IMG/VR virus record: IMGVR_UViG_3300050581_000228
Reading direction: 5' to 3' (one strand)
From: a virus
Lineage: Duplodnaviria; Heunggongvirae; Uroviricota; Caudoviricetes
Length of the DNA: 64,000 bases
Of the stretch, positions 1,889 through 26,326 are shown in pieces. Position 1 is the stretch's first letter. The number at the start of each line of letters is the position of its first letter. Made by a program: the position numbers and the translations under genes. A model generated the notes under the pieces. That model was given only the letters and a program-made list of their open reading frames with translations. It made no database searches and had not been told where the DNA came from.

Positions 1889-2231
1889 TCACGCAAACGG
1901 GTTAGAGCCTTTGGGGCAATCGGCATCGGGGTCAACCTTTATGAGTGTGGCGTGGGTGGGTAAACGGTCTTTCTTCCGAAGGCCGAGCTTCTCCTTGACG
2001 AGTCCGCGCGCCTCGCTACGGGTGTTCGCGCGAACCATGCCGTTCCGGCCGTTGCATTCCCAATGCCACTCGAACCGTGGCGGATTGAGGCGCGGGTCCA
2101 GGATCATTCCACCGGCAATCGCCTTGCGTTTGATCTCACGCTTGACCTTTGCCAGGGCTTCCTGGTAGCCGATCCTGCGCGGGCGTCGGGGGAGGGAGTC
2201 GAAGTATTCAATCCGTGTGCGTCTCATCGTC
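1889..2231 (-). CDS. small basic hypothetical protein
   Basis: The 1889..2344 ORF probably starts at MTMRRTRIEYFD; the upstream part overlaps the GNAT gene. Lysine/arginine rich. Confidence 0.3.
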
Positions 2232-3698: not shown

Positions 3699-4209
3699 CG
3701 AGCATCTCCTGAATCGCGCGCCGTAGGTAATCCACGGCTGTGTGGTCTTTGAGCGAATTCCACGGTCGCGGGCATAACAAGGTGGCTCCACCGGCCTGAC
3801 GGAAGGCCAGAATGTTGCTTTCGCGGTCGTCGATCAGCAACGTGCGCCCGTTGGCACACCACGCCTTGTTGGGCGTCAGGACGAATCGCCGCGTGTAGTT
3901 CGGCATTTGCTGTTCGATCCATCGCAGTTTGCCCTCGGCTGAACCGGGCCAAGAGGCAGGCGTGGAACAGATCACCACGTTCTCCGGCCCCACGGCATCT
4001 TCACAGAGGGCCACTATCCCGCGACCGTCCTCCATCCACGGAAGAGTTGCCCACCAGATCGCATCCGTCTTGCCCCAGAGTTCCGCATCGGTAATCTGGA
4101 GTTCGCCGCGATGAAACGCCGTGTTCACATCCATGCCATGTAGGTCATGGACGGGAGATTGGAGATCGACGATCACGCCGTCCATGTCCAGGAAGATGAG
4201 CTTGTTCAT
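3691..4209 (-). CDS. HAD superfamily 5'(3')-deoxyribonucleotidase-like phosphatase
   Basis: MNKLIFLDMDGVIVD (DxDxV) and LLIDD motifs. NT5C-like enzymes are common in phages. Paralog of the 10511..11080 gene. Confidence 0.65.
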   Translation of the reverse strand: MNKLIFLDMDGVIVDLQSPVHDLHGMDVNTAFHRGELQITDAELWGKTDAIWWATLPWMEDGRGIVALCEDAVGPENVVICSTPASWPGSAEGKLRWIEQQMPNYTRRFVLTPNKAWCANGRTLLIDDRESNILAFRQAGGATLLCPRPWNSLKDHTAVDYLRRAIQEMLDA

Positions 4210-4514
4210 GCTGGCTGTCCGTCCCTCCCGTTGACGCAAGGCGTATTGGCATTGCGCAGCGGCACCCCATGCTGCTCGAAACAGGCGACTCCGAGCGTCA
4301 CGACTTTTCGCAGACTCTCCAAGGTCTTCTCGTCGCCGTCCTCGCAGGTTGCCATGCGGAACGCCTGGTCAAGGTAGTGCCCCATGTAGACCAGGAATTC
4401 GCCGACAGTGCGCTTGTGCTCCTGGAAAGTGCCGTTCCATTGGCGTTGCCCCCAGCGGCGGGCTTGGTAGGCACGCTCGCTGGCAATCGCGTCGAAAATC
4501 ATGTCGATGGTCAT
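4206..4514 (-). CDS. hypothetical protein, possibly an all-alpha MazG-like NTP pyrophosphohydrolase
   Basis: 102 aa. ERAYQARRW...VGEFLVYMGHYL...EDGDEKTLESL loosely resembles the MazG EExxE/D pattern. ATGA coupling to the ligase gene stop. Confidence 0.35.
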   Translation of the reverse strand: MTIDMIFDAIASERAYQARRWGQRQWNGTFQEHKRTVGEFLVYMGHYLDQAFRMATCEDGDEKTLESLRKVVTLGVACFEQHGVPLRNANTPCVNGRDGQPA

Positions 4515-5584
4515 TCGTTGTCCTGTGCGCCTTTCCGATCGAGATAGTCCGCGCTCACGCTTTTCAAGATCAGCCGACCGCCGGTAGGAGCGTAGAATTG
4601 CTCAACCTGCGGGGTGATGACGCAGCCTTCTCGATCCTTAAAGCTGCTCTTGATCTTGTCTGAAGTAGCCAGCGTCGTGGGACCGTAGGTGAACTGCCTC
4701 ACGAGGTCTTTGCTGAACGGTCCCTCGTAGAGCACGGGGACCAGTTCGACGCCGAACTGGGCGCAGGCGGCTTTCAACGCCTCCCAGTCGAGATACCTGC
4801 CGTTGACGCTGATGTCGAAAACCCGGTAGCCGTCCTTGTCCTTGACTCCATAGTCGAGGTCTTGAACACACGCCCCGAAGATTTCCCCGAAAACGATCAC
4901 CGAGTTCTTCTCATCGCAGAGATGCGTGAGGAGATTCAAGACGCATTCGTCTTCGAGCGGCTTCCAGTAGATGCACGCCTTGCCTTCTTCCGGTTTCTTC
5001 CGCCTGGTCCGATGGCTCCCGGCCATGAACTCGAATTCGCCGTTCTTGAGGATCAGACCAACCCGGCTGTTCGTGCCGTGAATCTTCTCCGTGATCCGAA
5101 CGATTGTTCCTTCCGCGAAGGCATCGGGATAGCGCCAGATGTTCTCGATTTCTGTGTACTTGTGGAACTGGCTGTCCTCTGGCGCGAGATCGCCGGCAAA
5201 ATACTTGGCCGGCGGCTCGTACTTCTTGGCGGCCCACATCACCGACACGTCGCTCCCCAGGGGATGGGCGCGCAAGAGGTCGGGGGCAGGGATGATGAAA
5301 CCGAAGCTCGGTTCGCCTCGCAGCCGGCAGGCTGCCACCCGACACTGGCACTTGATGCCGTCGAGTTCGGCGTGTTTGAGATACTTCTGGATGCCGAGCG
5401 TTTGGCTGACATCCTGTGGGATCAGAATTCCGGGATGGAAAAAGACAACCCGCTGACCGTGTTGGAACTCGCCCTTGCCGACGATCGTTGTAAGACCCTT
5501 GATGACCGCGATTTCCAGTTTGCTCGCGTTCGGATGGGGCCTGATCTCGTCAATGGCGGTGAGTTCAACGAAAATGTTGGACAT
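4511..5584 (-). CDS. RNA ligase (Rnl2-like nucleotidyltransferase, KIHGTN motif I) with N-terminal tRNA-binding-like OB domain (DraRnl/NgrRnl Rnl5-like architecture)
   Basis: Motif I TEKIHGTN sits at about aa 168. The N-terminal 130 aa (HPNASKLEIAVIKG...GQRVVFF...ACRLRGEPSFGFI) matches the Myf/EMAPII-type tRNA-binding domain pattern. Confidence 0.7.
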   Translation of the reverse strand: MSNIFVELTAIDEIRPHPNASKLEIAVIKGLTTIVGKGEFQHGQRVVFFHPGILIPQDVSQTLGIQKYLKHAELDGIKCQCRVAACRLRGEPSFGFIIPAPDLLRAHPLGSDVSVMWAAKKYEPPAKYFAGDLAPEDSQFHKYTEIENIWRYPDAFAEGTIVRITEKIHGTNSRVGLILKNGEFEFMAGSHRTRRKKPEEGKACIYWKPLEDECVLNLLTHLCDEKNSVIVFGEIFGACVQDLDYGVKDKDGYRVFDISVNGRYLDWEALKAACAQFGVELVPVLYEGPFSKDLVRQFTYGPTTLATSDKIKSSFKDREGCVITPQVEQFYAPTGGRLILKSVSADYLDRKGAQDNE

Positions 5585-5828
5585 AGGCGCGCACCTTGAG
5601 CGCTGGAGGATGGTTGGAGGAAAAGCTAGAGCAACGCCAGACGCGGTTGGCGAGTCCTCTTCAACAGAGACCGCTTGCGCTAGTCGAGTGGTTTAAGTCA
5701 ACCTGGGAGTCTCCCAAGTATCAGGGCGCACGCTGCCTTTTCGAGCAACGTCTTTTCCGGCAGCTAGGGACTGCTCTCCAGCGTTGTCGCTGGCATATTG
5801 CTCAGCCCATCAACTCCCAGGTTGAAGG

Positions 5829-7107: not shown

Positions 7108-7820
7108 CGGTCTTCCATTGGTCGCTCGTGGTCAATCGTCTCCGCAAGCACTTGCTCGACTCGTTGGACGGCCTCAGCAAAATACTTGGCGTCCTTCTCG
7201 ATTCCCACGAAGCGCTTGCCGCTTCGGATCGCGGCTTCGGCCGTGGCACCCGATCCCATGAACCAGTCGCCGATCGTCTCGCCCGGCATCAAAGTCACCA
7301 GTCGTTGCAGGAGTTCGATCGGCTTCTCGGCCGGATGGATGCGATTGCTCGTCGGAACAACCTTGCACGATAGAACAGTCCCTTGGGTGTCCGTGAGCGT
7401 CGCGCCGGTGCCGGAGCACGCCAGGATCAATTCGTGCTGATGCCGCCACGGCCGCCCCATTCCGATCCGCTCCTTGTTCCAGACCAGGCAGACGGATCGC
7501 GGGAACAGGCTGTAGGTAGCTTCGTAGAACACCGGGTAGCTCTGGGCATCACAGAAGAACAGATGGTGTGAGTCCTTGCCGGCAACTTTCTGTGACAGGC
7601 CCACAATCTGCTCAAACCAGCCCCGCAGAATGCTCAGGTCCGCGTAGCAACGGGTCCAGCAATCCTCAGCCCGGCTGGCGTAATGCTGGGCCGGCAGGAA
7701 GAACGGCGGGTCGGTAATGACCGCATCGACCATGCCGGCTGGCAGCCGTCTCAAGACGTGCTCGGCATCACCGCAGAACAGCGAAATGTCGTTCTGCTGC
7801 CAATCAGGCTTCAGGGTCAT
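7092..7820 (-). CDS. DNA methyltransferase (beta-class N4-C/N6-A, ParB-associated type)
   Basis: DPPF near the N-terminus, then HPAEKP and GSGATAEAA (FxGxG-like), the order seen in DNA_methylase N-4/N-6 family. Probable start MTLKPDWQQ. Confidence 0.8.
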   Translation of the reverse strand: MTLKPDWQQNDISLFCGDAEHVLRRLPAGMVDAVITDPPFFLPAQHYASRAEDCWTRCYADLSILRGWFEQIVGLSQKVAGKDSHHLFFCDAQSYPVFYEATYSLFPRSVCLVWNKERIGMGRPWRHQHELILACSGTGATLTDTQGTVLSCKVVPTSNRIHPAEKPIELLQRLVTLMPGETIGDWFMGSGATAEAAIRSGKRFVGIEKDAKYFAEAVQRVEQVLAETIDHERPMEDRCRVL

Positions 7821-8908
7821 TCCACGTCCCTCCGTCGCCAATAGCGGGCTTCCTTCGGGATTCCGTCATCGGTGAGTTCCCGGTACTTGAACGTGACCGT
7901 CTGGCCTGTCTTGAAGCACTTCCCCTGGAAGAATGCTGGCATATCCTCGCCCGGATGCTCGGCCGCCGTGCGGCTCATGTCGGGATTGAGAAACTCGCGC
8001 TCGGCGTCCGTCAGGCCGGCAAGCTCCAGTCGCTTGCCCCTGTAGTCCACGATCAGTGCGCCAATCTTGCCCAGAAGTCGGCTGCCCTTGTTCGTCTCAC
8101 GACCAGACGTGAAACCAACGACCGTAGCCTCAGCGTCCTCGTAGGGTTTGAATTTGAGTAAGCCCTTGTGCCGTTTCGGCGTCCAGGGGGCCATCGGATC
8201 GCGGATCACACAGCCCTCCCCGCCTTGGTCGAGAACCTTTTGGAGGAAATCATTGACATTCGCTTGTGCCTCATCCTCACCCTCCGGCAACCGAAGCTGC
8301 TGATGAATGAAGACCCGATCATTCTGGGTCTCCAAGAACTCGCGCAGGAACATCAACTCATCGTTGAAGGTCGCCGGTGTGTTGACCCAGCCATAACCCG
8401 GCATCCTGTCGATCCGGGGCTTGAACCATTGTTCGATCTGCTCGAAGGCCAGGCTGCGGACCATGTTGGCGTTCTTGATCTCCCCCGACATGAACACGTA
8501 GGGAAGCGCAGGAGCGCTGTAGACCGCATAGCTGATGCGATGGAATCGCGGGTCCGGCTCATCGCCGCCGCAGATCGAGCGGCAAAGCTGGAAATTGCCA
8601 CGACCGGCCCACAATTCCCCATCGAGCGGACACGCCGGAAGGGCATTCAGAAAATCATCCGGGGCCATGATCGGATTACCATACCGGGACCACAGACCCG
8701 TGGCTTTCGGCTTGAGTTTCAACTTTCTCTTGCCGGTTTTCGGGTCTGTCACGCTGGCCCACGGTACTTGTTCGGTAGGGACGCCACGACTCGCGCCGCC
8801 GTCCCAGAAGCAGCGCGTTCCGTCGAGCTTCTCGCTGACCAAGTAGCCGGCGATCTTGTGCTTGTCCGGGTTGTAGGTATCGGCCAGTTGGAGAAACTCA
8901 CGACGCAT
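7817..8908 (-). CDS. ATP-dependent DNA ligase
   Basis: Probable start MRREFLQ. Motif I SEKLDGTR, motif III LDGELW, motif IV EGCVIRD, motif V LLKFK. Confidence 0.85.
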   Translation of the reverse strand: MRREFLQLADTYNPDKHKIAGYLVSEKLDGTRCFWDGGASRGVPTEQVPWASVTDPKTGKRKLKLKPKATGLWSRYGNPIMAPDDFLNALPACPLDGELWAGRGNFQLCRSICGGDEPDPRFHRISYAVYSAPALPYVFMSGEIKNANMVRSLAFEQIEQWFKPRIDRMPGYGWVNTPATFNDELMFLREFLETQNDRVFIHQQLRLPEGEDEAQANVNDFLQKVLDQGGEGCVIRDPMAPWTPKRHKGLLKFKPYEDAEATVVGFTSGRETNKGSRLLGKIGALIVDYRGKRLELAGLTDAEREFLNPDMSRTAAEHPGEDMPAFFQGKCFKTGQTVTFKYRELTDDGIPKEARYWRRRDVE

Positions 8909-9182
8909 TATGTCGCTCCAGGTGCTTGAATGCGGACTCGCTGTAATCGGCAAGGAAACTGCCGGCGCACCCGCAGGCAAACATGACGAACGGATTGAGG
9001 CTGACCAACGGACTGAGCAGGACGCCGCACCAGAAGCCCGCGCACTGGTAGCACTCAAACAAGCCGTGGTAGAGCTTCGGCGGCAGGTGTTGGCGCGCCC
9101 ATGTATCCACCGGCTCCATGATCTCGCTGTCGATCAGGATGTGAGTCATGCCGATGACGGCCAGAAAGAACAGCCAGATCAT
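8898..9182 (-). CDS. small cysteine-rich membrane protein, hypothetical
   Basis: 94 aa. Hydrophobic N-terminus MIWLFFLAVIG, then CYQCAGFWCGVLLSPLV. Confidence 0.4.
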   Translation of the reverse strand: MIWLFFLAVIGMTHILIDSEIMEPVDTWARQHLPPKLYHGLFECYQCAGFWCGVLLSPLVSLNPFVMFACGCAGSFLADYSESAFKHLERHNAS

Positions 9183-9964
9183 ATTGGCAACTCCGTTGGA
9201 TTGTGGACCGCCGTGCCGTTCACCCAGTCGAACACGCGGAACTGCCCACCTTCCGTGATTCGCACGAAGCTATTGACCCGCTCGGCCCAGGTGCCACAGT
9301 TGTAGTGCCACTCGCCGATCCGACCTGGCTTGTGGGTATGTCCGCAGACCGTCACGTCGGCGATCGGCGGCATCTCTCGCAGGTTGCGGTTGATGGCCGT
9401 GAACCGATCGGGCTTGCCGCGCAGGCGGTTCCAGAAGCTCACGAGCTTCTCAAGACGCCCGACCGTCCGGTCTTCGACCGTGCGGTACTTGTCGAGCATC
9501 GGCCCATCGTTGCGATCCTCGGCAAGCCCTGAGTAGATCGCCGTGATCCGTCCGAGTCCGGGCGTATCGCTGGAGCAGAACGGATCGGCTTGGTGACCGT
9601 GGATGAATCGCACTGACTTGCCAGCGATCCTCTCCTCGTGTTCAGCGCACATCGTCGAGAAGAACGGATATTCCAGCCAACCTTCCTTGTGCATGAAGTA
9701 ATAAAGGTCGGCATCGTGATTCCCAAGGACGTAGATTGCCTCCATGTCCGCTAGGCGGTCCAGCAGCCGTTCACGATTCGTCAGAACCTTGCTGATGTTG
9801 CTCTGCCACAACTCGAACAGATCGCCGCAGATAATCAACCGGCCGTTGTTACCGTCAACCATTTTGAGGAAGCGCTTGAACTGCTTCTCGCGGTCGCCAT
9901 GCGCGAAGTTATCGCGCGGCCCGCCATCTCCCATGTGCAAATCGCTTATGCAGTAGGTTTGCAT
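9179..9964 (-). CDS. calcineurin-like metallophosphoesterase
   Basis: DLHMGDG, GDLFE, GNHD, GHTH motifs. Confidence 0.8.
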   Translation of the reverse strand: MQTYCISDLHMGDGGPRDNFAHGDREKQFKRFLKMVDGNNGRLIICGDLFELWQSNISKVLTNRERLLDRLADMEAIYVLGNHDADLYYFMHKEGWLEYPFFSTMCAEHEERIAGKSVRFIHGHQADPFCSSDTPGLGRITAIYSGLAEDRNDGPMLDKYRTVEDRTVGRLEKLVSFWNRLRGKPDRFTAINRNLREMPPIADVTVCGHTHKPGRIGEWHYNCGTWAERVNSFVRITEGGQFRVFDWVNGTAVHNPTELPI

Positions 9965-10100: not shown

Positions 10101-10172
10101 AAGCCAGCGGCAGGAATCGAACCTGCGCCCCGCTGATTACAAGTCAGCGGCTCTACCATTGAGCTACACTGG
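10101..10172 (-). tRNA. tRNA-Thr (anticodon TGT)
   Basis: Reverse complement folds as GCCAGTG-TA-GCTC/AATGGTA/GAGC-C-GCTGA/CTTGTAA/TCAGC-GGGGC-GCAGG/TTCGATT/CCTGC-CGCTGGC-T, a canonical cloverleaf of 72 nt. Confidence 0.8.
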
Positions 10173-10337
10173 CTCCAGCCCGATCAGACCTGCGCGTCGG
10201 CGCTGGTCGTCTCGGCCTGGTCGCACGTGGCCGCCTCGGCGGCTTCGGTGCTCTGCTGGGCCTCGGGAAGAGCCTGCTCTTCCGGCTGCGGGCCACTCTG
10301 GGTTTCGTCGTGCGTCATTGCGAGCACTCCTGTGGGG

Positions 10338-16141: not shown

Positions 16142-16537
16142 TTATGGCACTTTCGGCCGAGGCGTGAACACCTTGTAGCCGTCCTCGTCGTAGGTCAAAT
16201 CAGAGTAGTAGCGTTTGTCGATGGATCGTTGTTCGGCCTCTTGCTCAAGCATGAACCGCTCGTAACGTTCCTCAGCATCCCACGCCTTCAGTGCTTGCTT
16301 GAGTGTTGGAAAGATGCCCAAGAGCGCGCCCCGGTAGGTGGCCCTAGCGCGATCGCCAACGACCTCAACGCCCTCGCCGAATGGCAGGAGTCGTCGGGCC
16401 TTGGGCGGCGGAATAGGCCGTTTCTGGGCAATCGCTTCCTTGACGGTTTCTGCTTCGTCCTCTTCAAGGCGATAGATCACCTTGCCGTTCGGCAGCTTGA
16501 CAGCGAATTGGAAGTCGTTCTCGTATTGCTCGTACAT
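16142..16537 (-). CDS. hypothetical protein
   Basis: 131 aa ORF with an ATG start; no motif recognised. Confidence 0.4.
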   Translation of the reverse strand: MYEQYENDFQFAVKLPNGKVIYRLEEDEAETVKEAIAQKRPIPPPKARRLLPFGEGVEVVGDRARATYRGALLGIFPTLKQALKAWDAEERYERFMLEQEAEQRSIDKRYYSDLTYDEDGYKVFTPRPKVP

Positions 16538-16547
16538 GGTGTAAGCT

Positions 16548-16670
16548 CAGAGGGCCTCGGCATTCCACACGGCTTCCGCGTGCCACGCGGGTGTCACCGT
16601 TACAGCCTGGCTAAGGCAGTCCTAGTCATTGGCCGTGCGGTCTATAGGTTCAGCGCAGTTGCGCGCCGAG
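16548..16670 (-). ncRNA. candidate structured RNA in the rsr 3' intergenic region (14 bp perfect inverted repeat closing a roughly 95 nt domain; contains UGACUAG)
   Basis: CAGAGGGCCTCGGC at about 16548-16561 pairs with GCCGAGGCCCTCTG at about 16657-16670. The minus-strand RNA contains CAAUGACUAGGAC. Strand is assigned by context. Coordinates carry about 8 nt uncertainty because of the display/ORF-track discrepancy here. Confidence 0.3.
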
Positions 16671-16690
16671 GCCCTCTGATGATTCAGGGC

Positions 16691-18352
16691 CTAGTTGCGA
16701 ATGAAGTCCGCCATGAGGGCGGGACAGGAGGCGTCGAAGCCTACCAGGTCAAGCATCCCAGCGTCGTTCGGATCAGCGATCGTAAACCCGGTGGCCGTCA
16801 TGCCGACAACGATCAGCTTGGCGTTGATGCCCGTGGCCTGACGGTACTGCATGAGGGCCTGACTGGGATGAATCTGCCCGGCCCAGGTCTCGTTGTCCGT
16901 GTAGACCACGAAGGCGTCCACTTCGAGCCGGTGTTCGAGGGCATAGATCATTGGCAGGGCACAGTCGGTCCCGCCCATCGGAATCTGCTCGATTGCCTGG
17001 ATCACGCCGTTGAGGCCCTGCCTCTTGGAGATGTCCACGGGCACCAGTTCGTGTGAGAAGCCGACCACATGCGTCTGCGGCTCGATCTTGTGAGTCACCA
17101 TCGACATGCAGGCGACGGCCTTGCGGCAGTCCAGATGCGTATTGGCCAGGTACTCCCAGCCCATCGACCCTGACACGTCCAGGGCCAACAGATGCCGCTT
17201 GCCGGTCGGCTCGACGGCATCGAAAGCCGAGTAGAAGGCATCCTCCAATGCAGCCGTGACTTGCTGTACCGGCTGCCATGTGAGGCTGCCTTTGATCCCG
17301 TGCCCTTGCCCGTAAGTGTCGGCTGCAATCAGAACGGACAATGGATGCACACGAGCACCTTTGAGCCGTTCGGTGTTGGTGAGCGTGTCGCACACCAGCT
17401 TCGTCGCTAGCGATAATGGCTTGAGCAGGCCCACGCTGGTCATCTTGCCGAGGTTGCGAATCATGGCCGTGGGCGGCAGATTCGGCAGCAAGGCGTCCCA
17501 GACCGCTGGGCTGCCAAGCAGCGTATTCGGCACGTGTTCCAAGGTCAGGCCGAAGGCTTGGATCAGCCGGACGGCCTCCTTCTCGTCACTGGGACCGAGC
17601 TTGTTGATCTCATTGAAGCCGGTGACGATCCGCAGATCACATGAACACGGCGGAAGCTCGCCCTTGGTAATCCAGTGATACAGGGCGTTGTGGTCGGAAT
17701 CAGTCGCCACCGGATGGCTCAGTCGCAGCACGTCGCGGTGCGTATAGCCAGCCCGGTTGCGGTACTTCGTGACTTGATAGGCCAGCTTGTCAGCAGGTTT
17801 CGTGTTGTACCAGACCGCAACCGCTTCACGTAGACCACGGCCCCAGCCGCGCAGTTCTTTGCAGTTGGCGACGAATTGGAACAAGTGCGTTGAAGTTCGG
17901 CACACGTGCGGGACAAAGCCAAGAGCCATGCGCCGAGCCGAATCGTTGTCCATCTGACTGGCCAAGAGTGCCAAAGCGAAGATCGCGGCGTCATTCTTGG
18001 GAGCACGTCCCGACTCGCTGATGGAAACAATCGTATCGACGGTCTGCGTTGGGTTGGCAGCCGCACACTCGATCACCACGGCGGCATTGTCAGCCGTCAA
18101 CTGGCGCTCGCCCACGTAGTAGGTGCCGCCCTCGCTGCCCAAGATCAAGAACCGCTCTAGTCTGCTCCAGCAATCCAGCGTATGGTTGTAGCCACCAGCA
18201 TTGTTCTGCGCCTGGCGTTTGCCAGGGATCGGCAGGCTCTGCGGGGTGACTCGGGACGACACGTGCTTGGCTAGGGTCTTCATCCAACGATCTCCAAGTG
18301 AAAGAATTGGGCGAGGAACTGCCGTGGGTGTCATCATTGCCAGATAACCCAC
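16691..18352 (-). CDS. rsr: Ro60/Rsr-like protein (TROVE-like helical N-terminal region plus C-terminal vWA domain with MIDAS)
   Basis: 553 aa, GTG start. C-terminal vWA HLLALDVSGSMG...GGTDCALPM (DxSxS...T MIDAS) preceded by about 350 aa of helical repeats. Size and architecture match Ro60 orthologs. Y-RNA-like motifs lie on both sides. Confidence 0.7.
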   Translation of the reverse strand: MGYLAMMTPTAVPRPILSLGDRWMKTLAKHVSSRVTPQSLPIPGKRQAQNNAGGYNHTLDCWSRLERFLILGSEGGTYYVGERQLTADNAAVVIECAAANPTQTVDTIVSISESGRAPKNDAAIFALALLASQMDNDSARRMALGFVPHVCRTSTHLFQFVANCKELRGWGRGLREAVAVWYNTKPADKLAYQVTKYRNRAGYTHRDVLRLSHPVATDSDHNALYHWITKGELPPCSCDLRIVTGFNEINKLGPSDEKEAVRLIQAFGLTLEHVPNTLLGSPAVWDALLPNLPPTAMIRNLGKMTSVGLLKPLSLATKLVCDTLTNTERLKGARVHPLSVLIAADTYGQGHGIKGSLTWQPVQQVTAALEDAFYSAFDAVEPTGKRHLLALDVSGSMGWEYLANTHLDCRKAVACMSMVTHKIEPQTHVVGFSHELVPVDISKRQGLNGVIQAIEQIPMGGTDCALPMIYALEHRLEVDAFVVYTDNETWAGQIHPSQALMQYRQATGINAKLIVVGMTATGFTIADPNDAGMLDLVGFDASCPALMADFIRN

Positions 18353-18442
18353 GCGCTTCGGCCCAATGTTTTGCCGGGCAAGGAATGCCGATCGGTGTTT
18401 GTCAACTGAAGGTGAGATAACCGATGCAGCTTCGGCCCGGAG

Positions 18443-18572
18443 GCACGCCGGTAGGACTCGAACCTACGACCACAGGTTCCCTTTGTGATAACGCTCCCGA
18501 TTCGGCCCATCAGGCAAGAGACTCGAAAGCGATTTCTGATACCTGCGCTCTGACCAACTGAGCTACGGCGTA
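18443..18572 (-). ncRNA. tRNA-like gene 1 with about 56-63 nt intervening module inside the anticodon stem-loop (Y-RNA-like/intron-like)
   Basis: Acceptor TACGCCG/CGGCGTG. D-arm GCTC-AGTTGGTCA-GAGC. Anticodon stem CAGGT...ACCTG enclosing 63 nt. Variable loop TGGTC. T-arm GTAGG-TTCGAGT-CCTAC. The insert contains CGCUUUC...UCUCUUGCC...UGGGCCGAAUCGGGAGCGUUAUC. Confidence 0.5.
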
Positions 18573-18581
18573 CACGAGAGC

Positions 18582-18701
18582 GGACACCGGCGGGGATCGA
18601 ACCCGCAACACCCCGTTATCAGCGGATAACGCTTTGCCTTCGGCCCAGAGGGCAAGAGATGGAAAGCGCGTTAGGTGCTTTGCCGATTAAGCTACGGCGT
18701 C
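18582..18701 (-). ncRNA. tRNA-like gene 2 with 49 nt homologous module between the D-arm and an anticodon-arm-like hairpin (loop CUGAUAA, would read GAU)
   Basis: Acceptor GACGCCG/CGGTGTC (one G-U pair). D-arm GCTT-AATCGGCA-AAGC. T-arm GCGGG-TTCGATC-CCCGC. Insert CGCUUUCC AUCUCUUGCC CUC UGGGCCGAAGG CAAAGCGUUAUC, with outer stem CGCUUU/AAAGCG covarying against CGCUUUC/GGGAGCG in gene 1. Confidence 0.5.
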
Positions 18702-18709
18702 CAAATCGT

Positions 18710-18743
18710 TCTCTATTTAAGACGACAGGCGGGGAGGGGTTTT
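18710..18743 (-). promoter_or_regulatory. conserved 34 bp promoter-like motif immediately upstream of tRNA-like gene 2 (identical copy upstream of the 61667 ORF)
   Basis: TCTCTATTTAAGACGACAGGCGGGGAGGGGTTTT here equals the reverse complement of 61609-61643, which lies 24 nt upstream of a plus-strand start codon. Confidence 0.4.
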
Positions 18744-19549
18744 GCCGTCAGATTTTGTCCCGTTTTTGCCAATTCAATGTCCTGATCGAACTCGTCATCG
18801 CTGATATAACCCGCACACCATGCGCCCATCCGCGTAGCGAGACCTTCAAGGCCGGCTTCCAGCAATTGCCCGATGCGGGCATTGATCTCCTCCTTGCCTC
18901 GCCGATACCGGAACTTCCTGCGATACCGAGGGTTGACGATGAGCTTCCGCTTGTGCTTGCCCCGAGCCGCAATGATTTCATCGGCCGCCTGAATTTGCTC
19001 ATCGGCGGGGAGCTTCACGAGGGCATCCACGTCGAGCAAAGTCAGCATCCGGGCGGCGACCTTCTCACGGAGTTCCTCGGGAAGCTCCATGATCCGTAGC
19101 CGCTGATGCACCCACCGCGTATCGCGGTTCATTTCCTGGGCGATCGTCCGCAACGATGTGCCGGCGGGAAAACGACGAGCAATCGCTTGTGCCTGTTCGA
19201 GCGGATTGAGGTCTTCGCGCTCCAAGTTCTCGGTCAGGTTTAGAATCTCTGCCGCACGGTCAGTAAGACCTTGCCGGATGTTCGCCGGGATATTGGTCCA
19301 TCTCAGAAACGTCTTGACCGCCGCCAGACGGCGGAAACCGGCGACCAGGCGGTATGGCTCAATGAAGCCGACCTGACTGTCCTCGCGCCGCTGGAGGATC
19401 ACCGGGATTTCAAGCCCGGCTTGCGCGATGTTGTCGGCCAGCCCCTTCACGGACTGAAACGTGAACACATTGCGGCAATTGAAATCAGGATCGACCCAGA
19501 TGTCGGCCAGCGGAACGTCGTATGCGTCGTAACGACTAAGGCGTTCCAT
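18713..19549 (-). CDS. ParB-like nuclease domain protein
   Basis: Start MERLSRYDAYD. ParB box PYRLVAGFRRLAA (GxRRxxA). Confidence 0.65.
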   Translation of the reverse strand: MERLSRYDAYDVPLADIWVDPDFNCRNVFTFQSVKGLADNIAQAGLEIPVILQRREDSQVGFIEPYRLVAGFRRLAAVKTFLRWTNIPANIRQGLTDRAAEILNLTENLEREDLNPLEQAQAIARRFPAGTSLRTIAQEMNRDTRWVHQRLRIMELPEELREKVAARMLTLLDVDALVKLPADEQIQAADEIIAARGKHKRKLIVNPRYRRKFRYRRGKEEINARIGQLLEAGLEGLATRMGAWCAGYISDDEFDQDIELAKTGQNLTAKPLPACRLK

Positions 19550-19565
19550 AGATACCTCGGTAGAC

Positions 19566-19592
19566 GAAAAACGGCCCGGCCGAAGCCGGGCC
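19566..19592 (-). terminator. rho-independent terminator downstream of tRNA-Asn
   Basis: Minus-strand GCCCGGCTTCGGCCGGGCC followed by GTTTTTCG. Confidence 0.55.
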
Positions 19593-19595
19593 AAA

Positions 19596-19670
19596 GGCTG
19601 CATCGCCTGGGGTCGAACCAGGAACCACAGCATTAACAGTGCCGCGCTCTACCATTTGAGCTACGATGCA
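19596..19670 (-). tRNA. tRNA-Asn (anticodon GTT)
   Basis: TGCATCG-TA-GCTC/AAATGGTA/GAGC-G-CGGCA/CTGTTAA/TGCTG-TGGTT-CCTGG/TTCGACC/CCAGG-CGATGCA-G-CC. Confidence 0.8.
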
Positions 19671-19676
19671 GTGAGA

Positions 19677-20015
19677 CTAGCTCAGGGTATCGGTCACGAG
19701 CGAGTCAAGCGGTACGCTGGCCGAAACGGCGCACTCCCTGCGAGGAAATGGGATGATGTACTCTCGGTCCTCCGGTTTATCTGGGCCGTGAGCGGTCAGG
19801 GCATTGACACCCTCTTTGCCAACCGGCTCATAGGTCTCGCGGAAGATGTCGTCCTTGCAGGGATAAAGTTCGCCCTTAACGCCCTGGACGATCCAATCGC
19901 CAGGCTCGACGATCAAGTCCTGACCGTGAAGTGTCTGGTTTCCGGGGATCACAACCCGCTGCATGACGCGCTCGGCATTGACAACTACGGGCTTCTTACG
20001 AAAGGCAGCAGGCAT
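19677..20015 (-). CDS. hypothetical protein
   Basis: Probable start MPAAFRKKPVVVNAERV; no motif recognised. Confidence 0.4.
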   Translation of the reverse strand: MPAAFRKKPVVVNAERVMQRVVIPGNQTLHGQDLIVEPGDWIVQGVKGELYPCKDDIFRETYEPVGKEGVNALTAHGPDKPEDREYIIPFPRRECAVSASVPLDSLVTDTLS

Positions 20016-25444: not shown

Positions 25445-26326
25445 TCAGCTTGAATTCACGGGCGCATCCAACACCTGCCTTTCTCTACATTGGCGAACTT
25501 TCGCCTCTAGCTCTCGCACGCTGTCTCGATCGAGATGGCAGGCCCAACGCAAGCCCGCATAGAAGCCGTCGAGCGGATTCTGGCACCCCTCGGTTGCGCA
25601 GATCAACGCTCCGACTTGTCTCTTCGCTAGCTCGATCTCGATGTCCTTCATGTGACGAAGATGGCCCTGCGCCCGGAACGGGTCCGAGTAGAAGGCGTCC
25701 ATCTTGCCCTGCTTGACCGCCTCTCTGAATTGCTTGACGCACGCTGCCGCAATGGGCCTGAACTCCCTGGGCGGCGTGATCTTGGCCCGATCCACGTAGT
25801 CCCGTTGCATGGACCGTGGAATCTTGGCCAGCATGTAGGCGTTCTCGATGGGAATCTCGCCCCGATCGACCATCACCTGAATCTCTCTCAGGAGATTGGC
25901 CAGTTCGAGGCACTTCCCGACCCATTTCGGTGACTTGCGGATGAGACAAGCCAACTCGCCTTGGGTCATGCCAGGGTTGCGTAGCAGCAACCTTTTAAGC
26001 TGCTGGGCATATTCGGCCTGCTTCGTCTCCGGCGAGATCGCGTTCGCCTGGAGCATCAGGACCAGAGCCTCGTCATCGCTACACTCCCTGATGATGCAGG
26101 GCAGCGTATCCCGCCCTGCTTCCTTGGCGGCGGCGTAGCGCTGGAGGCCATTGATGATCTCGTAAAGCCCGTCGCCGAAAGGGCGAACAAGGATTGATTG
26201 CAGGACGCCTTTCTCCCGGACGCTCTCGCGCAATTCCAGGTATTCAACGCTGTCCCGATTCACGCCCCGTAGCTTGACCTTCGGCTCCCGCAGGACGTGG
26301 ACCGGCAAGGTCTCCAATCGGTCCAT
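25445..26326 (-). CDS. ParB/Spo0J-like N-terminal domain protein
   Basis: ILVRPFGDGLYEIINGLQRYAAAKEAG matches the ParB N-terminal box. Confidence 0.7.
   Translation of the reverse strand: MDRLETLPVHVLREPKVKLRGVNRDSVEYLELRESVREKGVLQSILVRPFGDGLYEIINGLQRYAAAKEAGRDTLPCIIRECSDDEALVLMLQANAISPETKQAEYAQQLKRLLLRNPGMTQGELACLIRKSPKWVGKCLELANLLREIQVMVDRGEIPIENAYMLAKIPRSMQRDYVDRAKITPPREFRPIAAACVKQFREAVKQGKMDAFYSDPFRAQGHLRHMKDIEIELAKRQVGALICATEGCQNPLDGFYAGLRWACHLDRDSVRELEAKVRQCRERQVLDAPVNSS

Follow-up and report, generated by a model that had tools for sequence, protein, structure and literature searches.

The window, a 64,000-nucleotide stretch of DNA from a Caudoviricetes virus (IMG/VR record IMGVR_UViG_3300050581_000228), carries on its minus strand an array of two tRNA-shaped units, A and B, and two short hairpins, Y2 and Y3, followed by rsr, a Ro60 ortholog (Table 1). 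The rsr product matches the Pfam families TROVE (5.5e-44) and vWA_Ro60 (1.9e-67) and is 45-49% identical to actinophage proteins annotated as 'Ro-like RNA binding protein'. Units A and B lie 160-420 nt upstream of rsr on the same strand, within the few kb expected of a YrlA, and Y2 and Y3 sit between them and the gene in the same orientation. An initial annotation, which described the two units as tandem tRNA-like genes, mentioned neither Y2 and Y3 nor the adjoining rsr. Terminator prediction placed no intrinsic terminator in the stretch from the units to rsr, no sigma-70 promoter was found in a scan of 16500-19800, and nothing matched when the 441-nt array was compared by blastn with 50,697 phage records. 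A protein-coding reading of the units was rejected because only mechanical ORFs of 58 aa and 146 aa overlap them and because the elements are conserved and covarying, which also disposes of their being junk.

Table 1 Features of the Ro60/Rsr array in the phage window.
Feature	Position	Strand	Evidence
Unit A, type I tRNA-shaped Y RNA ("gene 2" of the initial annotation)	18582-18701	-	Sequence, intron-permissive ARAGORN, R3, family covariation, A15:U48
Unit B, type II tRNA-shaped Y RNA ("gene 1" of the initial annotation)	18443-18572	-	Rfam tRNA, intron-permissive ARAGORN, R3, covariation, G15:C48
Module of unit A	18625-18668	-	R1, R2, centroid fold
Module of unit B	18487-18531	-	R1/R2 seed, centroid fold, compensated L001 homolog
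Y2, mini Y RNA, canonical Y-RNA hairpin	18372-18440	-	Fold, compensated homologs
Y3, mini Y RNA, canonical Y-RNA hairpin	18301-18368	-	Rfam Y_RNA, nematode sbRNA family, fold
rsr, Ro60 ortholog, 530 aa; ATG at 18283, GGAG before ATG	16691-18283	-	Pfam

The acceptor stems, D arms with GG and T arms reported for the two tandem elements are indeed present, on the minus strand. Unit A is 120 nt long and consists of an acceptor stem GACGCCG/CGGUGUC (5' strand 18701-18695, 3' strand 18589-18583, discriminator C 18582), a D arm (18692-18677), a linker ACCUAACG (18676-18669), an anticodon-arm-like hairpin UCCG-CUGAUAA-CGGG with 4 bp and a 7-nt loop (18626-18612), a V loop GUGUU (18611-18607) and a T arm GCGGG-UUCGAUC-CCCGC (18606-18590). 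Its module is inserted between the D arm and this hairpin, which are about 50-51 nt apart, in line with the 49 nt given earlier for the CUGAUAA hairpin. Unit B, 130 nt long, has an acceptor stem UACGCCG/CGGCGUG (5' strand 18572-18566, 3' strand 18450-18444, discriminator C 18443), a D arm with GG (18563-18547), a V loop UGGUC and a T arm GUAGG-UUCGAGU-CCUAC (18467-18451). It contains a perfect 5-bp anticodon-type stem CAGGU/ACCUG (18545-18541 with 18477-18473) that encloses 63 nt, exactly as annotated, and the module stands in place of the anticodon loop, which the unit does not have. When compared with the Rfam tRNA model, unit B scored 47.4 bits (gathering score 29), only with a 60-nt insertion modelled in the anticodon loop, and unit A gave a partial match of 15.9 bits. 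A whole-unit covariance model, R3, scored unit A at 96.5 bits, unit A being itself in the R3 seed, and unit B, which is outside the seed, at 70.3 bits. Standard ARAGORN misses both units, and in its intron-permissive mode it reports A and B in the 64 kb window and nothing else of their kind.

The two inserted modules share a Y-RNA core, in which a bulged GGGCCGAA/CUUGCC helix and a second helix are followed by UUAUC at the 3' end of the module. They are homologous, as had been stated, with closing stems that differ by U-A versus U-G pairs; the length once put at 49-56 nt comes down to 44-45 nt for the module proper. Module A (CGCUUUCC..CUUGCCC-UCU-GGGCCGAAGGCAAAGCG-UUAUC) forms an upper helix CGCUUU-CC/GG-C-AAAGCG and a lower bulged helix (U)UGCCC/GGGC-C-GA(A) with the loop UCU, and its Ro motif GGGCCGAAGG is at 18646-18637. 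Module B (CGCUUUCGA..CUUGCC-UGAU-GGGCCGAAUCGGGAGCG-UUAUC) forms a 9-bp upper helix CGCUUUCGA/UCGGGAGCG and a lower helix (UU)GCCU/GGGC-C-(GA) with the loop GAU, its Ro motif GGGCCGAA being at 18508-18501. The sequence GCCGAAG of unit A fits the published Ro60-binding motif GNCGAA-N0-1-G, whereas that of unit B, GCCGAAUCG, departs from it by having the G after 2 nt; GCCGCUG, GUCGUAG and GCCGGAG are also present among the Ro motifs of other tRNA-shaped family members. The module covariance model R1, built from two sequences with module B in the seed and module A left out, detected module A at 41.4 bits (E 1.3e-7). R1 was too narrow (15 matches) and was iterated to R2, which again has module B in its seed and scores module A at 55.4 bits.

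Y2, which starts 3 nt past the discriminator of unit B, pairs its 5' strand CCGGGC-C-GAAG with the 3' strand CCUUGCCCGG and continues into an upper helix AUCGGU/ACCGAU, with UUAUC at the start of the loop. Its fold has an energy of -27.2 kcal/mol (z = -3.9), and its homologs in the Rsr loci L001 and L004 have compensated upper helices; hairpins of this type number 71 in 80 phage loci and the window. Y3 is built in the same way (UUGGGC-C-GAAG/CUCGCCCAA, upper helix GUGGGU/ACCCAC, then UUAUC; fold z = -3.4). It matches the Rfam Y_RNA family (RF00019) over the full consensus shape with 20.6 bits, below the gathering score of 38 and with an E value of 0.5 over 2.2 kb, and the nematode sbRNA family with 18.4 bits. 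A homolog of this mini Y RNA type in locus L077 scores above the gathering score of the nematode family. As in metazoan Y RNAs, the helix of Y2 and Y3 is made by the ends of the RNA, whereas units A and B have this helix in a form closed off by a loop.

The same architecture recurs widely next to rsr genes. A strict pattern scan for whole units, with acceptor and T stems among the selection criteria, found 66 units in 44 Rsr loci. These loci belong to uncultured phages and to Myxococcota and further bacteria, and every unit has the orientation of rsr, with no match on the opposite strand. R2, which models the module alone, matched solely the rsr strand (60/60 and 95/95) in the window and 160 Rsr loci, but since it also matches straddles, in which the 3' half of a Y RNA runs into the 5' half of the following one (e.g., window 18343-18395), its matches are not countable as units without a check of length and flanks. 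This strand preference goes beyond chance expectation, and the insert is conserved and covarying in homologous loci, where an unconserved insert had been considered. With intron-permissive ARAGORN, 80 phage Rsr loci yielded 31 such elements, of which 30 have the orientation of rsr, and 80 bacterial loci yielded 72; R3 gave 53 matches of at least 58 bits in the bacterial set, each of them on the rsr strand. Neither method settles the topology alone, because both yield chimeras at tandem classical YrlAs, ARAGORN in locus L029 (2761-2901) and R3 in the Gordonia phage Cashline (L161, 1752-1889). No YrlA reached the gathering score in 10 loci rich in tRNA-shaped units. On the other hand, no clear case of a tRNA-topology unit was seen in eight cultured Rsr phages (Cashline, FuzzBuster, Sixama, Shelob, Atu_ph07, Blueeyedbeauty, BoomerJR and Myrna), which have a classical YrlA or no YrlA, and the cultured-phage records inspected contain no Y RNA annotation.

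We then turn to covariation. In a MAFFT alignment of 39 type I units, not fitted to structure, 90.7% of the cells are paired, compared with 35-47% when the partners are slid by 1-3 columns. The upper module helix is 83.7% paired, with changes on both sides in 8 of its 9 pairs, and the lower one 89.7%; the 100% pairing of the acceptor and T stems is by construction, because both stems were criteria of the scan. MAFFT puts unit A of the window one column off in the upper helix, and likewise the small hairpin of A8, so that unit A counts as partly unpaired in the alignment even though it is well paired by eye. Among 10 type II homologs, the acceptor, D, anticodon-type and T stems of the unit B type covary. 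Of the 66 units, 61 have G:C or A:U at the Levitt pair 15:48, against 31.7 expected under independence, and the window shows both versions, A:U in unit A and G:C in unit B. Changes between the window and locus L001 are compensated inside single units: the acceptor stem of unit B goes from UACGCCG/CGGCGUG to CACGUUG/CAACGUG, the upper helix of module B becomes CGCUUUCA/UGGAAGCG, and that of unit A becomes CGCUUACCC/GGGUCAGCG.

The near-identical acceptor stems of A and B make a second fold possible in the window. A classical YrlA could span the A/B junction, with the T arm of A, an acceptor stem-loop made of the A 3' and B 5' strands, and the D arm of B; the 3' half of module A and the 5' half of module B would form the Ro60 stem, and the outer halves would be left over or paired together. 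The Rfam YrlA model does match in this cross-unit register, and only there (18635-18523, 37.9 bits, E 3e-6), but far under its gathering score of 69. The junction strands CGGUGU/ACGCCG form 6 bp, and the minimum-free-energy fold of the whole array uses this pairing of the A 3' strand with the B 5' strand, leaving the outer acceptor strands to each other. Classical YrlAs are also common elsewhere (16 phage and 20 bacterial Rsr loci), and the tandem ones of Cashline mimic a tRNA-shaped unit to R3 with 65.5 bits. However, the junction acceptor loop is 12 nt, while clear classical cases mostly have a 7-bp stem and a 3-8-nt loop, often a GNRA or UUCG tetraloop; the linkers between the module halves are just 3 nt; and a whole D arm and a whole T arm would stay unused despite perfect partners in cis. 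The upper helices of the window make 8 and 9 pairs in cis compared with 6 and 7 in trans, and in L001 GGGUCAGCG and CGCUUUCAA do not pair in trans past 4 bp, while the cis pairing is compensated. The centroid structure of the whole array is all-cis, with unit A, unit B, Y2 and Y3 each folded separately. We regard a junction YrlA as unlikely. A comparison of best-complementary 8-mers (7.2 of 8 in cis, 6.4 with other loci) is uninformative on this point, because upper helices are alike across the family; it fails to tell cis from trans where tandem units are paralogs.

The cis tRNA topology is further supported by comparison among loci. Many tRNA-shaped units are single in their locus; in L016, L041, L077 and L087 the acceptor stem differs from one unit to its neighbour, and in L087 and L106 units are separated by real tRNA genes. 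A 3' CCA is encoded directly after the discriminator in 8 of the 66 units, with about one expected by chance. Taken with the compensated changes in L001, these features argue for tRNA-shaped units that are predicted to fold each on itself.

Could the tRNA-like bodies serve as mere punctuation, cut by RNase P and RNase Z so that a long transcript is split into mini Y RNAs and rsr mRNA? In 9 of 18 phage units the next mini Y RNA begins 1-8 nt past the first base after the discriminator, the gap in the window being 3 nt, but such a role leaves the conserved, covarying Ro60-binding module in each unit unexplained, and bacterial units stand alone or amid tRNA genes, with a following mini Y RNA in only 2 of 48. 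We consider this role on its own very unlikely. That the units are real tRNA genes with a new short intron, spliced to give decoding tRNAs such as tRNA-Ile(GAU) in the case of A and tRNA-Leu(CAG) in that of B, is hardly credible. ARAGORN can be made to read both as intron-containing tRNAs, and type I units have a small hairpin that is anticodon-loop-like (C32 in 19, U33 in 23, A37 in 21 and A38 in 21 of 26) and that R3 aligns with the anticodon arm of true tRNAs. Yet the insert is the most conserved part, bears the Ro60-binding consensus, is without exception linked to rsr on its strand and occupies different sites in A and B; the type I site, between D arm and anticodon arm, does not correspond to a known intron position. 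The putative anticodon loops of type II units differ between homologs (AUCAGAA, CAAAAGA, AAUAUG), the 'anticodons' assigned by ARAGORN are erratic, and the supposed tRNA-Leu would be without a long variable arm. Furthermore, no Intron_gpI match was obtained at E <= 10 in 17800-20000, and no bulge-helix-bulge was seen by eye in the inserts of 45-63 nt.

The initial annotation had left the choice between Y-RNA-like tRNA mimics and tRNAs with a new short intervening sequence; known YrlA tRNA mimicry was not among the alternatives it considered. The first reading is supported and the second is not. With rsr 160 nt downstream, two canonical Y hairpins, a sub-threshold YrlA match and a recurring architecture, we conclude with good though not full confidence that units A and B belong to the YrlA class of tRNA-mimicking, Ro60(Rsr)-binding Y RNAs and have a circularly permuted, tRNA-like topology. 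The Y2 and Y3 hairpins and the Ro60/Rsr gene downstream on the same strand place the units in the YrlA class rather than among intron tRNAs, and since YrlA already mimics tRNA, the tRNA-shaped units are a variant within a known class and not a new one. Homology to YrlA by permutation is seen directly when the YrlA of the Microbacterium phage FuzzBuster is re-cut in its acceptor loop: it then aligns to unit A' of L001 with 97 identities and a score of 133.5, compared with 42.5 unpermuted and 52 ± 6.5 for shuffles.

From these structures a working model can be drawn. The array would be transcribed one way, as unit A, unit B, the two mini Y RNAs and rsr. Each tRNA-shaped RNA would fold in cis into an L-shaped tRNA body with an open 7-bp acceptor stem, D arm, T arm and 15:48 pair, and its extra arm would be the Y-RNA core, consisting of the bulged-C helix GGGC-C-GA, a 3-nt loop, the second helix and a single-stranded UUAUC. 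Host tRNA enzymes may excise the tRNA-like bodies, RNase P at the 5' end, followed by 3' trimming and CCA addition, and excision of unit B would free the 5' end of the mini Y RNA 3 nt downstream. Rsr probably binds the bulged helix, and the tRNA-shaped body with its free 3' end could then act as the effector that tethers Rsr to a partner binding tRNAs or 3' ends. A complex of Rsr, Y RNA and PNPase is known, and PNPase is one candidate partner, a tRNA repair or processing enzyme being another. More speculatively, tRNA-topology Y RNAs might be a distinct widespread class that dominates in Myxococcota-type Rsr loci and in some phages, matured like tRNAs (RNase P, CCA, possibly aminoacylation). 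With the diversified 'anticodons' of their anticodon-loop-like hairpin they would pose as particular tRNAs and so bring Ro60, together with an exonuclease or repair enzyme recruited by it, to machines that recognise tRNA, anticodon nucleases for example, or else act as decoys for these machines. Tandem arrays foldable either way would then be the bridge from a hairpin-carrying tRNA to the classical permuted YrlA; we offer this wider scheme only tentatively.

A true tRNA topology bears both on the reason for tRNA mimicry by bacterial Y RNAs and on their origin. The open acceptor, the sometimes encoded CCA and the often anticodon-loop-like hairpin make the idea of a tRNA maturation pathway directly testable, and the tRNA-topology form is a plausible ancestral or intermediate form, with tandem arrays readable in either register. 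It may also explain the few delta-proteobacteria candidates of the original YrlA search, in which matches overlapping tandem tRNA genes were discarded (PMC4201824). For annotation, the consequence is that some of these genes, such as unit B, are called tRNAs with an insert and others, such as unit A, are missed entirely. No description of the tRNA-topology YrlA was found in the literature reached by our search, and an earlier description is possible.

The closest known relative is YrlA (RF02553; Chen et al. 2014), the Y RNA with a tRNA-like domain from bacteria and mycobacteriophages, which is also characterised by Rsr binding and by modification through TruB and DusA. Like YrlA, the units lie near rsr on the same strand and have a tRNA-like domain with acceptor stem, D arm, T arm and a covarying 15:48 pair; their Ro60 motif is of the GNCGAA type, closely so in unit A and loosely in unit B, and their parts, including the linkers GCUAAAC and UUAYC and the small hairpin, are equal and come in equal circular order. 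However, the ends of YrlA form the Ro60-binding stem and its acceptor is closed by a loop, whereas the ends of units A and B are predicted to meet in the acceptor stem, with the Ro60 helix capped. In the tRNA-shaped units this helix has only about 4 bp beneath the bulge and a loop of 3-8 nt (3 nt in the window), a 3' CCA is encoded in some, and unit B adds a 5-bp anticodon-type stem around the module, all unlike YrlA. The crystal structure of YrlA is tRNA-like, and its authors proposed an origin from a dimeric tRNA (Wang et al. 2018, bioRxiv 10.1101/312249). In M. smegmatis, RNase P cleaves YrlA in vivo and CCA is added to it (PMC4201824), and the cleaved RNA resembles our units in the opened 7-bp acceptor stem and the tRNA-like 3' end on a Ro60-bound tRNA mimic; it consists of two base-paired pieces with the Ro60 stem ends free, while units A and B would be single chains whose topology is encoded in the gene. 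Yrn1 of D. radiodurans is similar as a Y RNA with a T arm that tethers Rsr to PNPase but has the Ro60-binding stem in the acceptor position and no evident D arm (PMC4201824). The small Y RNAs (RF00019, the nematode sbRNAs, Yrl1/Yrl2 of the Thermus phage phiLo (PMC12135203) and YrlB of S. Typhimurium) share the bulged GG(U/G)C-C-GA helix, the upper helix and UUAUC with the modules and with Y2 and Y3, although their helix is made from the RNA ends, whereas units A and B have it as a capped hairpin, with a complete tRNA body in the role of the 'loop domain'. Compared with tRNA (RF00005), the cloverleaf frame is present, yet the normal arrangement of the anticodon arm is not, and the lengths are 120 and 130 nt instead of 72-90 nt. 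Permuted tRNA genes of Cyanidioschyzon merolae and others and the two-piece permuted tmRNA are precedents for circularly permuted tRNA-like genes, but their products are processed back to normal function, whereas the two topologies of the Ro60 partner appear to be alternative mature forms.

The two tandem tRNA-like genes claimed in the initial annotation are borne out: units A and B, two putative Y RNA genes on the minus strand, both contain the cloverleaf parts, with a 7-bp acceptor stem, U8, A14, GG in the D loop, a UUCGAnn T loop and a Levitt pair (A15:U48 in unit A, G15:C48 in unit B). Unit B passed the Rfam tRNA cut-off (47.4 bits), an insertion of 60 nt taking the place of the anticodon loop, and unit A was detected by neither standard ARAGORN nor the Rfam tRNA model; intron-permissive ARAGORN reported both, as its sole such calls across the 64-kb window. 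Each unit carries a module, a hairpin with a predicted Ro60-binding Y-RNA core. The two modules are homologous to each other, as had been proposed, but their size is 44–45 nt and not the 49–56 nt given before.

Between unit B and rsr lie two canonical small (mini) Y-RNA hairpins, Y2 and Y3, and the 530-aa rsr product is a Ro60/Rsr ortholog (Pfam TROVE 5.5e-44; vWA_Ro60 1.9e-67). The window, with a G+C content of 59%, is a phage genome judging from the surrounding gene set, which comprises a family A DNA polymerase, a DUF5906 primase-helicase-like protein, two ParB-like proteins and DNA methylases as well as an RNA ligase, a DNA-ligase-like protein, a phosphoesterase, tRNA-Thr and tRNA-Asn. No intrinsic terminator was predicted from the units to rsr, the closest one being upstream, past tRNA-Asn, and no sigma-70-type promoter was found in 16500–19800. 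One ParB-like gene lies upstream of unit A, ending 12 nt before it, and may share a transcript with the Y-RNA array and rsr. The clustered RNA ligase, DNA-ligase-like protein and phosphoesterase form a possible tRNA/RNA repair set in this Ro60-bearing phage; Rsr and YrlA, the known tRNA-mimic bacterial Y RNA, have been tied to tRNA damage (PMC7790460), a link that the phage RNA ligase and phosphoesterase fit but do not prove.

Features of the window, and units with an extra capped hairpin in comparison loci (L numbers, Rsr loci gathered for comparison)
Feature	Position	Strand	Remark
Unit A	18701-18582	minus	
Small hairpin of unit A	18626-18612		after UUAUC
Spacer, unit A to unit B			9 nt
Unit B	18572-18443	minus	
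Rfam YrlA match	18635-18523		37.9 bits
Spacer, unit B to Y2			2 nt
Hairpin Y2	18440-18372	minus	
Hairpin Y3	18368-18301	minus	
Straddling module match	18343-18395	minus	29.8 bits
rsr	18283-16691	minus	GGAG, then ATG at 18283
ParB-like gene	18713-19633	minus	upstream of unit A
ParB-like gene	25445-26326	minus	
RNA ligase	4511-5584	minus	PF09414 and PHA02142 OB fold
ATP-dependent DNA-ligase-like protein	7817-9058	minus	
Calcineurin-like phosphoesterase	9179-9964	minus	
tRNA-Thr	10101-10174	minus	near ligase/phosphoesterase cluster
L016 unit	4993-5126		
L053 unit	4804-4938		
L090 unit	5691-5824		
L093 unit	1958-2104		
L115 unit	5544-5675		

Y2 and Y3 share the standard Y-RNA shape, in which a (U/C)GGGC-C-GAAG 5' strand pairs with a CUYGCCC(A/G) 3' strand leaving one C bulged, followed by a second helix and by UUAUC at the start of the loop. 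Y3 aligned to the full Rfam Y_RNA consensus with 20.6 bits, a score under the gathering score, and both hairpins were much more stable than their shuffles (z = −3.9 for Y2 and −3.4 for Y3). The modules of units A and B keep both Y-RNA helices and UUAUC with the strand order inverted: a 3'-type upper strand, the 3'-type lower strand CUUGCC, a 3-nt loop, GGGCCGAA, the other upper strand and UUAUC. The helix end normally bearing the RNA termini is closed and the end normally facing the Y-RNA loop domain opens into the tRNA body; the modules are thus Y-RNA cores turned inside out. We also observed that a composite of one mini Y RNA's 3' half with the 5' half of its successor scores as a module, in the window and likewise in L003, L004, L014 and L025. 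Tandem Y RNAs are paralogs whose helices resemble one another, which explains these matches and makes register a general trap in Y-RNA arrays. A phage mini Y RNA (L077 2837-2900) matched the nematode stem-bulge RNA family ceN72-3_ceN74-2 at 38.5 against a gathering score of 38, showing how strongly the Y-RNA core is conserved.

Relatives of the units were sought in 80 uncultured phage and 80 bacterial loci collected by Rsr protein search, the latter mostly from Myxococcota, Verrucomicrobiota, Armatimonadota and Chloroflexota MAGs with some megabase-sized contigs. With ARAGORN in its intron-permissive mode, the phage loci yielded 31 tRNA-with-insert elements, of which 30 lay on the rsr strand, and the bacterial loci contributed 72. 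A covariance model of the module alone, refined by one iteration (R1 to R2), gave 60 and 95 matches, on the rsr strand in every case. A strict pattern scan demanded flawless pairing in the T stem and the 7-bp acceptor stem, together with a D stem, the Ro motif and UUAYC; it returned 66 units, spread over 44 loci, and nothing on the opposite strand. With R3, a whole-unit model, unit A scored 96.5 bits and unit B, which was outside the seed, 70.3 bits, against a ceiling of about 55 bits for true tRNAs; 53 units in the bacterial loci reached at least 58 bits. Two architectures recur, often adjacent (the window, L001, L010, L016, L041): in type I, as unit A, the module follows the D arm and precedes a small hairpin, and in type II, as unit B, it is enclosed in a 5-bp anticodon-type stem. 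The tRNA-topology form was not found among the eight cultured phages examined.

The loci showed further variation. Some units (listed in the table) have an extra GNRA- or UUCG-capped hairpin between the module and the D arm or anticodon-type stem. A unit B homolog at L004 2751-2838 is devoid of the Ro60-binding hairpin, its CAGGU/ACCUG stem holding just AAACCAGCGUUAUCAAGGAA, and a mini Y RNA still lies 3 nt downstream. In bacterial L087, L100, L106, L112 and L093, rsr and the tRNA-shaped Y RNAs lie within very dense tRNA arrays, with more than 25 Rfam tRNA matches in 6.6 kb of L087. A match to the wcaG RNA motif (56.2, gathering score 42) lies upstream of a phage rsr at L013 1298-1413. Gordonia phage Sixama (L163; MN484601) gave an Rfam tmRNA match of 88 bits at 3995-4416 (record ~88707-89128), within the 713 nt that separate two annotated tRNA genes, where the record has no tmRNA feature, and a sub-threshold YrlA match of 46.8 bits at 4901-4999.

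To count pairing, 39 type I units were aligned with MAFFT alone, without fitting to a structure. The proposed structure paired 90.7% of cells, partners slid by 1–3 columns paired 35–47%, and none of 500 shuffles matched the observed values; the acceptor and T stems, being scan criteria, are perfect by construction and the D stem was selected more loosely (at least 3 of 4 pairs), whereas the module helices and small hairpin were unselected for pairing. The upper module helix was 83.7% paired with two-sided changes in 8 of 9 pairs, the lower helix 89.7% and the small hairpin 71%. For 10 type II units RNAalifold recovered the acceptor, D, anticodon-type and T stems, most pairs being changed on both sides, and the upper helices are each distinct and each complementary (for example CGCUUUCGA/UCGGGAGCG, CGCUUUCA/UGGAAGCG, CGUUG/CAACG, CGGUUCUC/GAGAAUCG, CCGUCG-UC/GA-GUGACGG). 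The bases of the tertiary (Levitt) pair, 15:48, are G:C or A:U in 61 of the 66 units, where independence predicts 31.7; this excess argues for a real L-shaped fold.

The small hairpin of type I matches the YrlA element named V arm by Chen et al. (PMC4201824). Its usual form, seen in 26 of 36 perfect stems, is 4 bp and a 7-nt loop of anticodon-like composition (C32 19/26, U33 23/26, A37 21/26, A38 21/26, the middle three variable), the general pattern being Y32, U33, variable 34–36, A37 and A38; the "anticodons" are diverse, including GAU, GUU, GCU, UGU, UCC and AUU. When true tRNAs are aligned to R3, their anticodon arm coincides with this hairpin and the module becomes a 51-nt deletion. From this loop composition and alignment, type I can be read as a five-armed tRNA and the small hairpin as a putative anticodon-arm mimic.

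Classical YrlA begins with the Ro 5' strand, continues through the T arm, the closed acceptor stem-loop and the D arm, and ends with the Ro 3' strand. The junction of two tandem tRNA-shaped units holds a stretch in this order, which explains the Rfam YrlA match in the window, and Chen et al. cautioned about the mirror-image artefact from dimeric tRNAs (PMC4201824). Comparative sequence data provide evidence for cis folding of the tRNA-shaped family. Single, non-tandem units are numerous; the acceptor stems of tandem units in L016, L041, L077 and L087 mismatch those of the neighbour (4–5 of 7 in trans), and true tRNA genes are interposed in L087 and L106. In L001, whose Rsr is 74% identical, the unit B acceptor changes CC to UU with GG to AA, compensated within the unit, as are the changes in the unit A upper helix, and the cross-unit upper helix fails past 4 bp. 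CCA is encoded directly after the discriminator in 8 of the 66 units, about 1 being expected by chance. The collections also contain classical YrlAs, in 16 of the phage loci and 20 of the bacterial ones, chiefly Verrucomicrobiota; further examples come from two cultured actinophages, Cashline and FuzzBuster. Most of these YrlAs have a 7-bp acceptor stem, with closing loops of 3–8 nt. In the window the fold is ambiguous because the acceptor stems of A and B are near-identical: the minimum-free-energy structure of the 410-nt array pairs each 5' strand with the other unit's 3' strand, but the centroid is all-cis. Owing to this ambiguity we leave the classical reading a small chance there and consider it improbable.

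For the cis-folded units, the array and rsr would be co-transcribed and the units cut out by RNase P, 3' processing and CCA addition; RNase P cleavage and CCA receipt have a precedent in M. smegmatis YrlA (PMC4201824). Excision would also release the following mini Y RNA at its 5' end; in 9 of 18 phage units, counted from the base next to the discriminator, a mini Y RNA starts within 1–8 nt. Rsr would bind the bulged helix, and the tRNA body may tether it to an effector.

Rfam 15 has no family for the tRNA-topology form, and the searched literature describes only the classical topology. FuzzBuster YrlA and type I are alike in parts and circular order, including GCUAAAC past the D arm and UUAUC-ACCUGUUAAGUGAG-AGGUC ahead of the T arm. 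When cut in its acceptor loop, FuzzBuster YrlA aligned to the type I unit A' of L001 with 97 identities and a score of 133.5, compared with 42.5 unpermuted and 52 ± 6.5 for shuffles. Given the shared order and the rise in score after re-cutting, type I is a circular permutation of classical YrlA, or vice versa, and a tandem array legible in both registers, as in the window, would be a textbook route to permutation. We rate the tRNA-topology form as a variant of the known YrlA-type Y RNAs.
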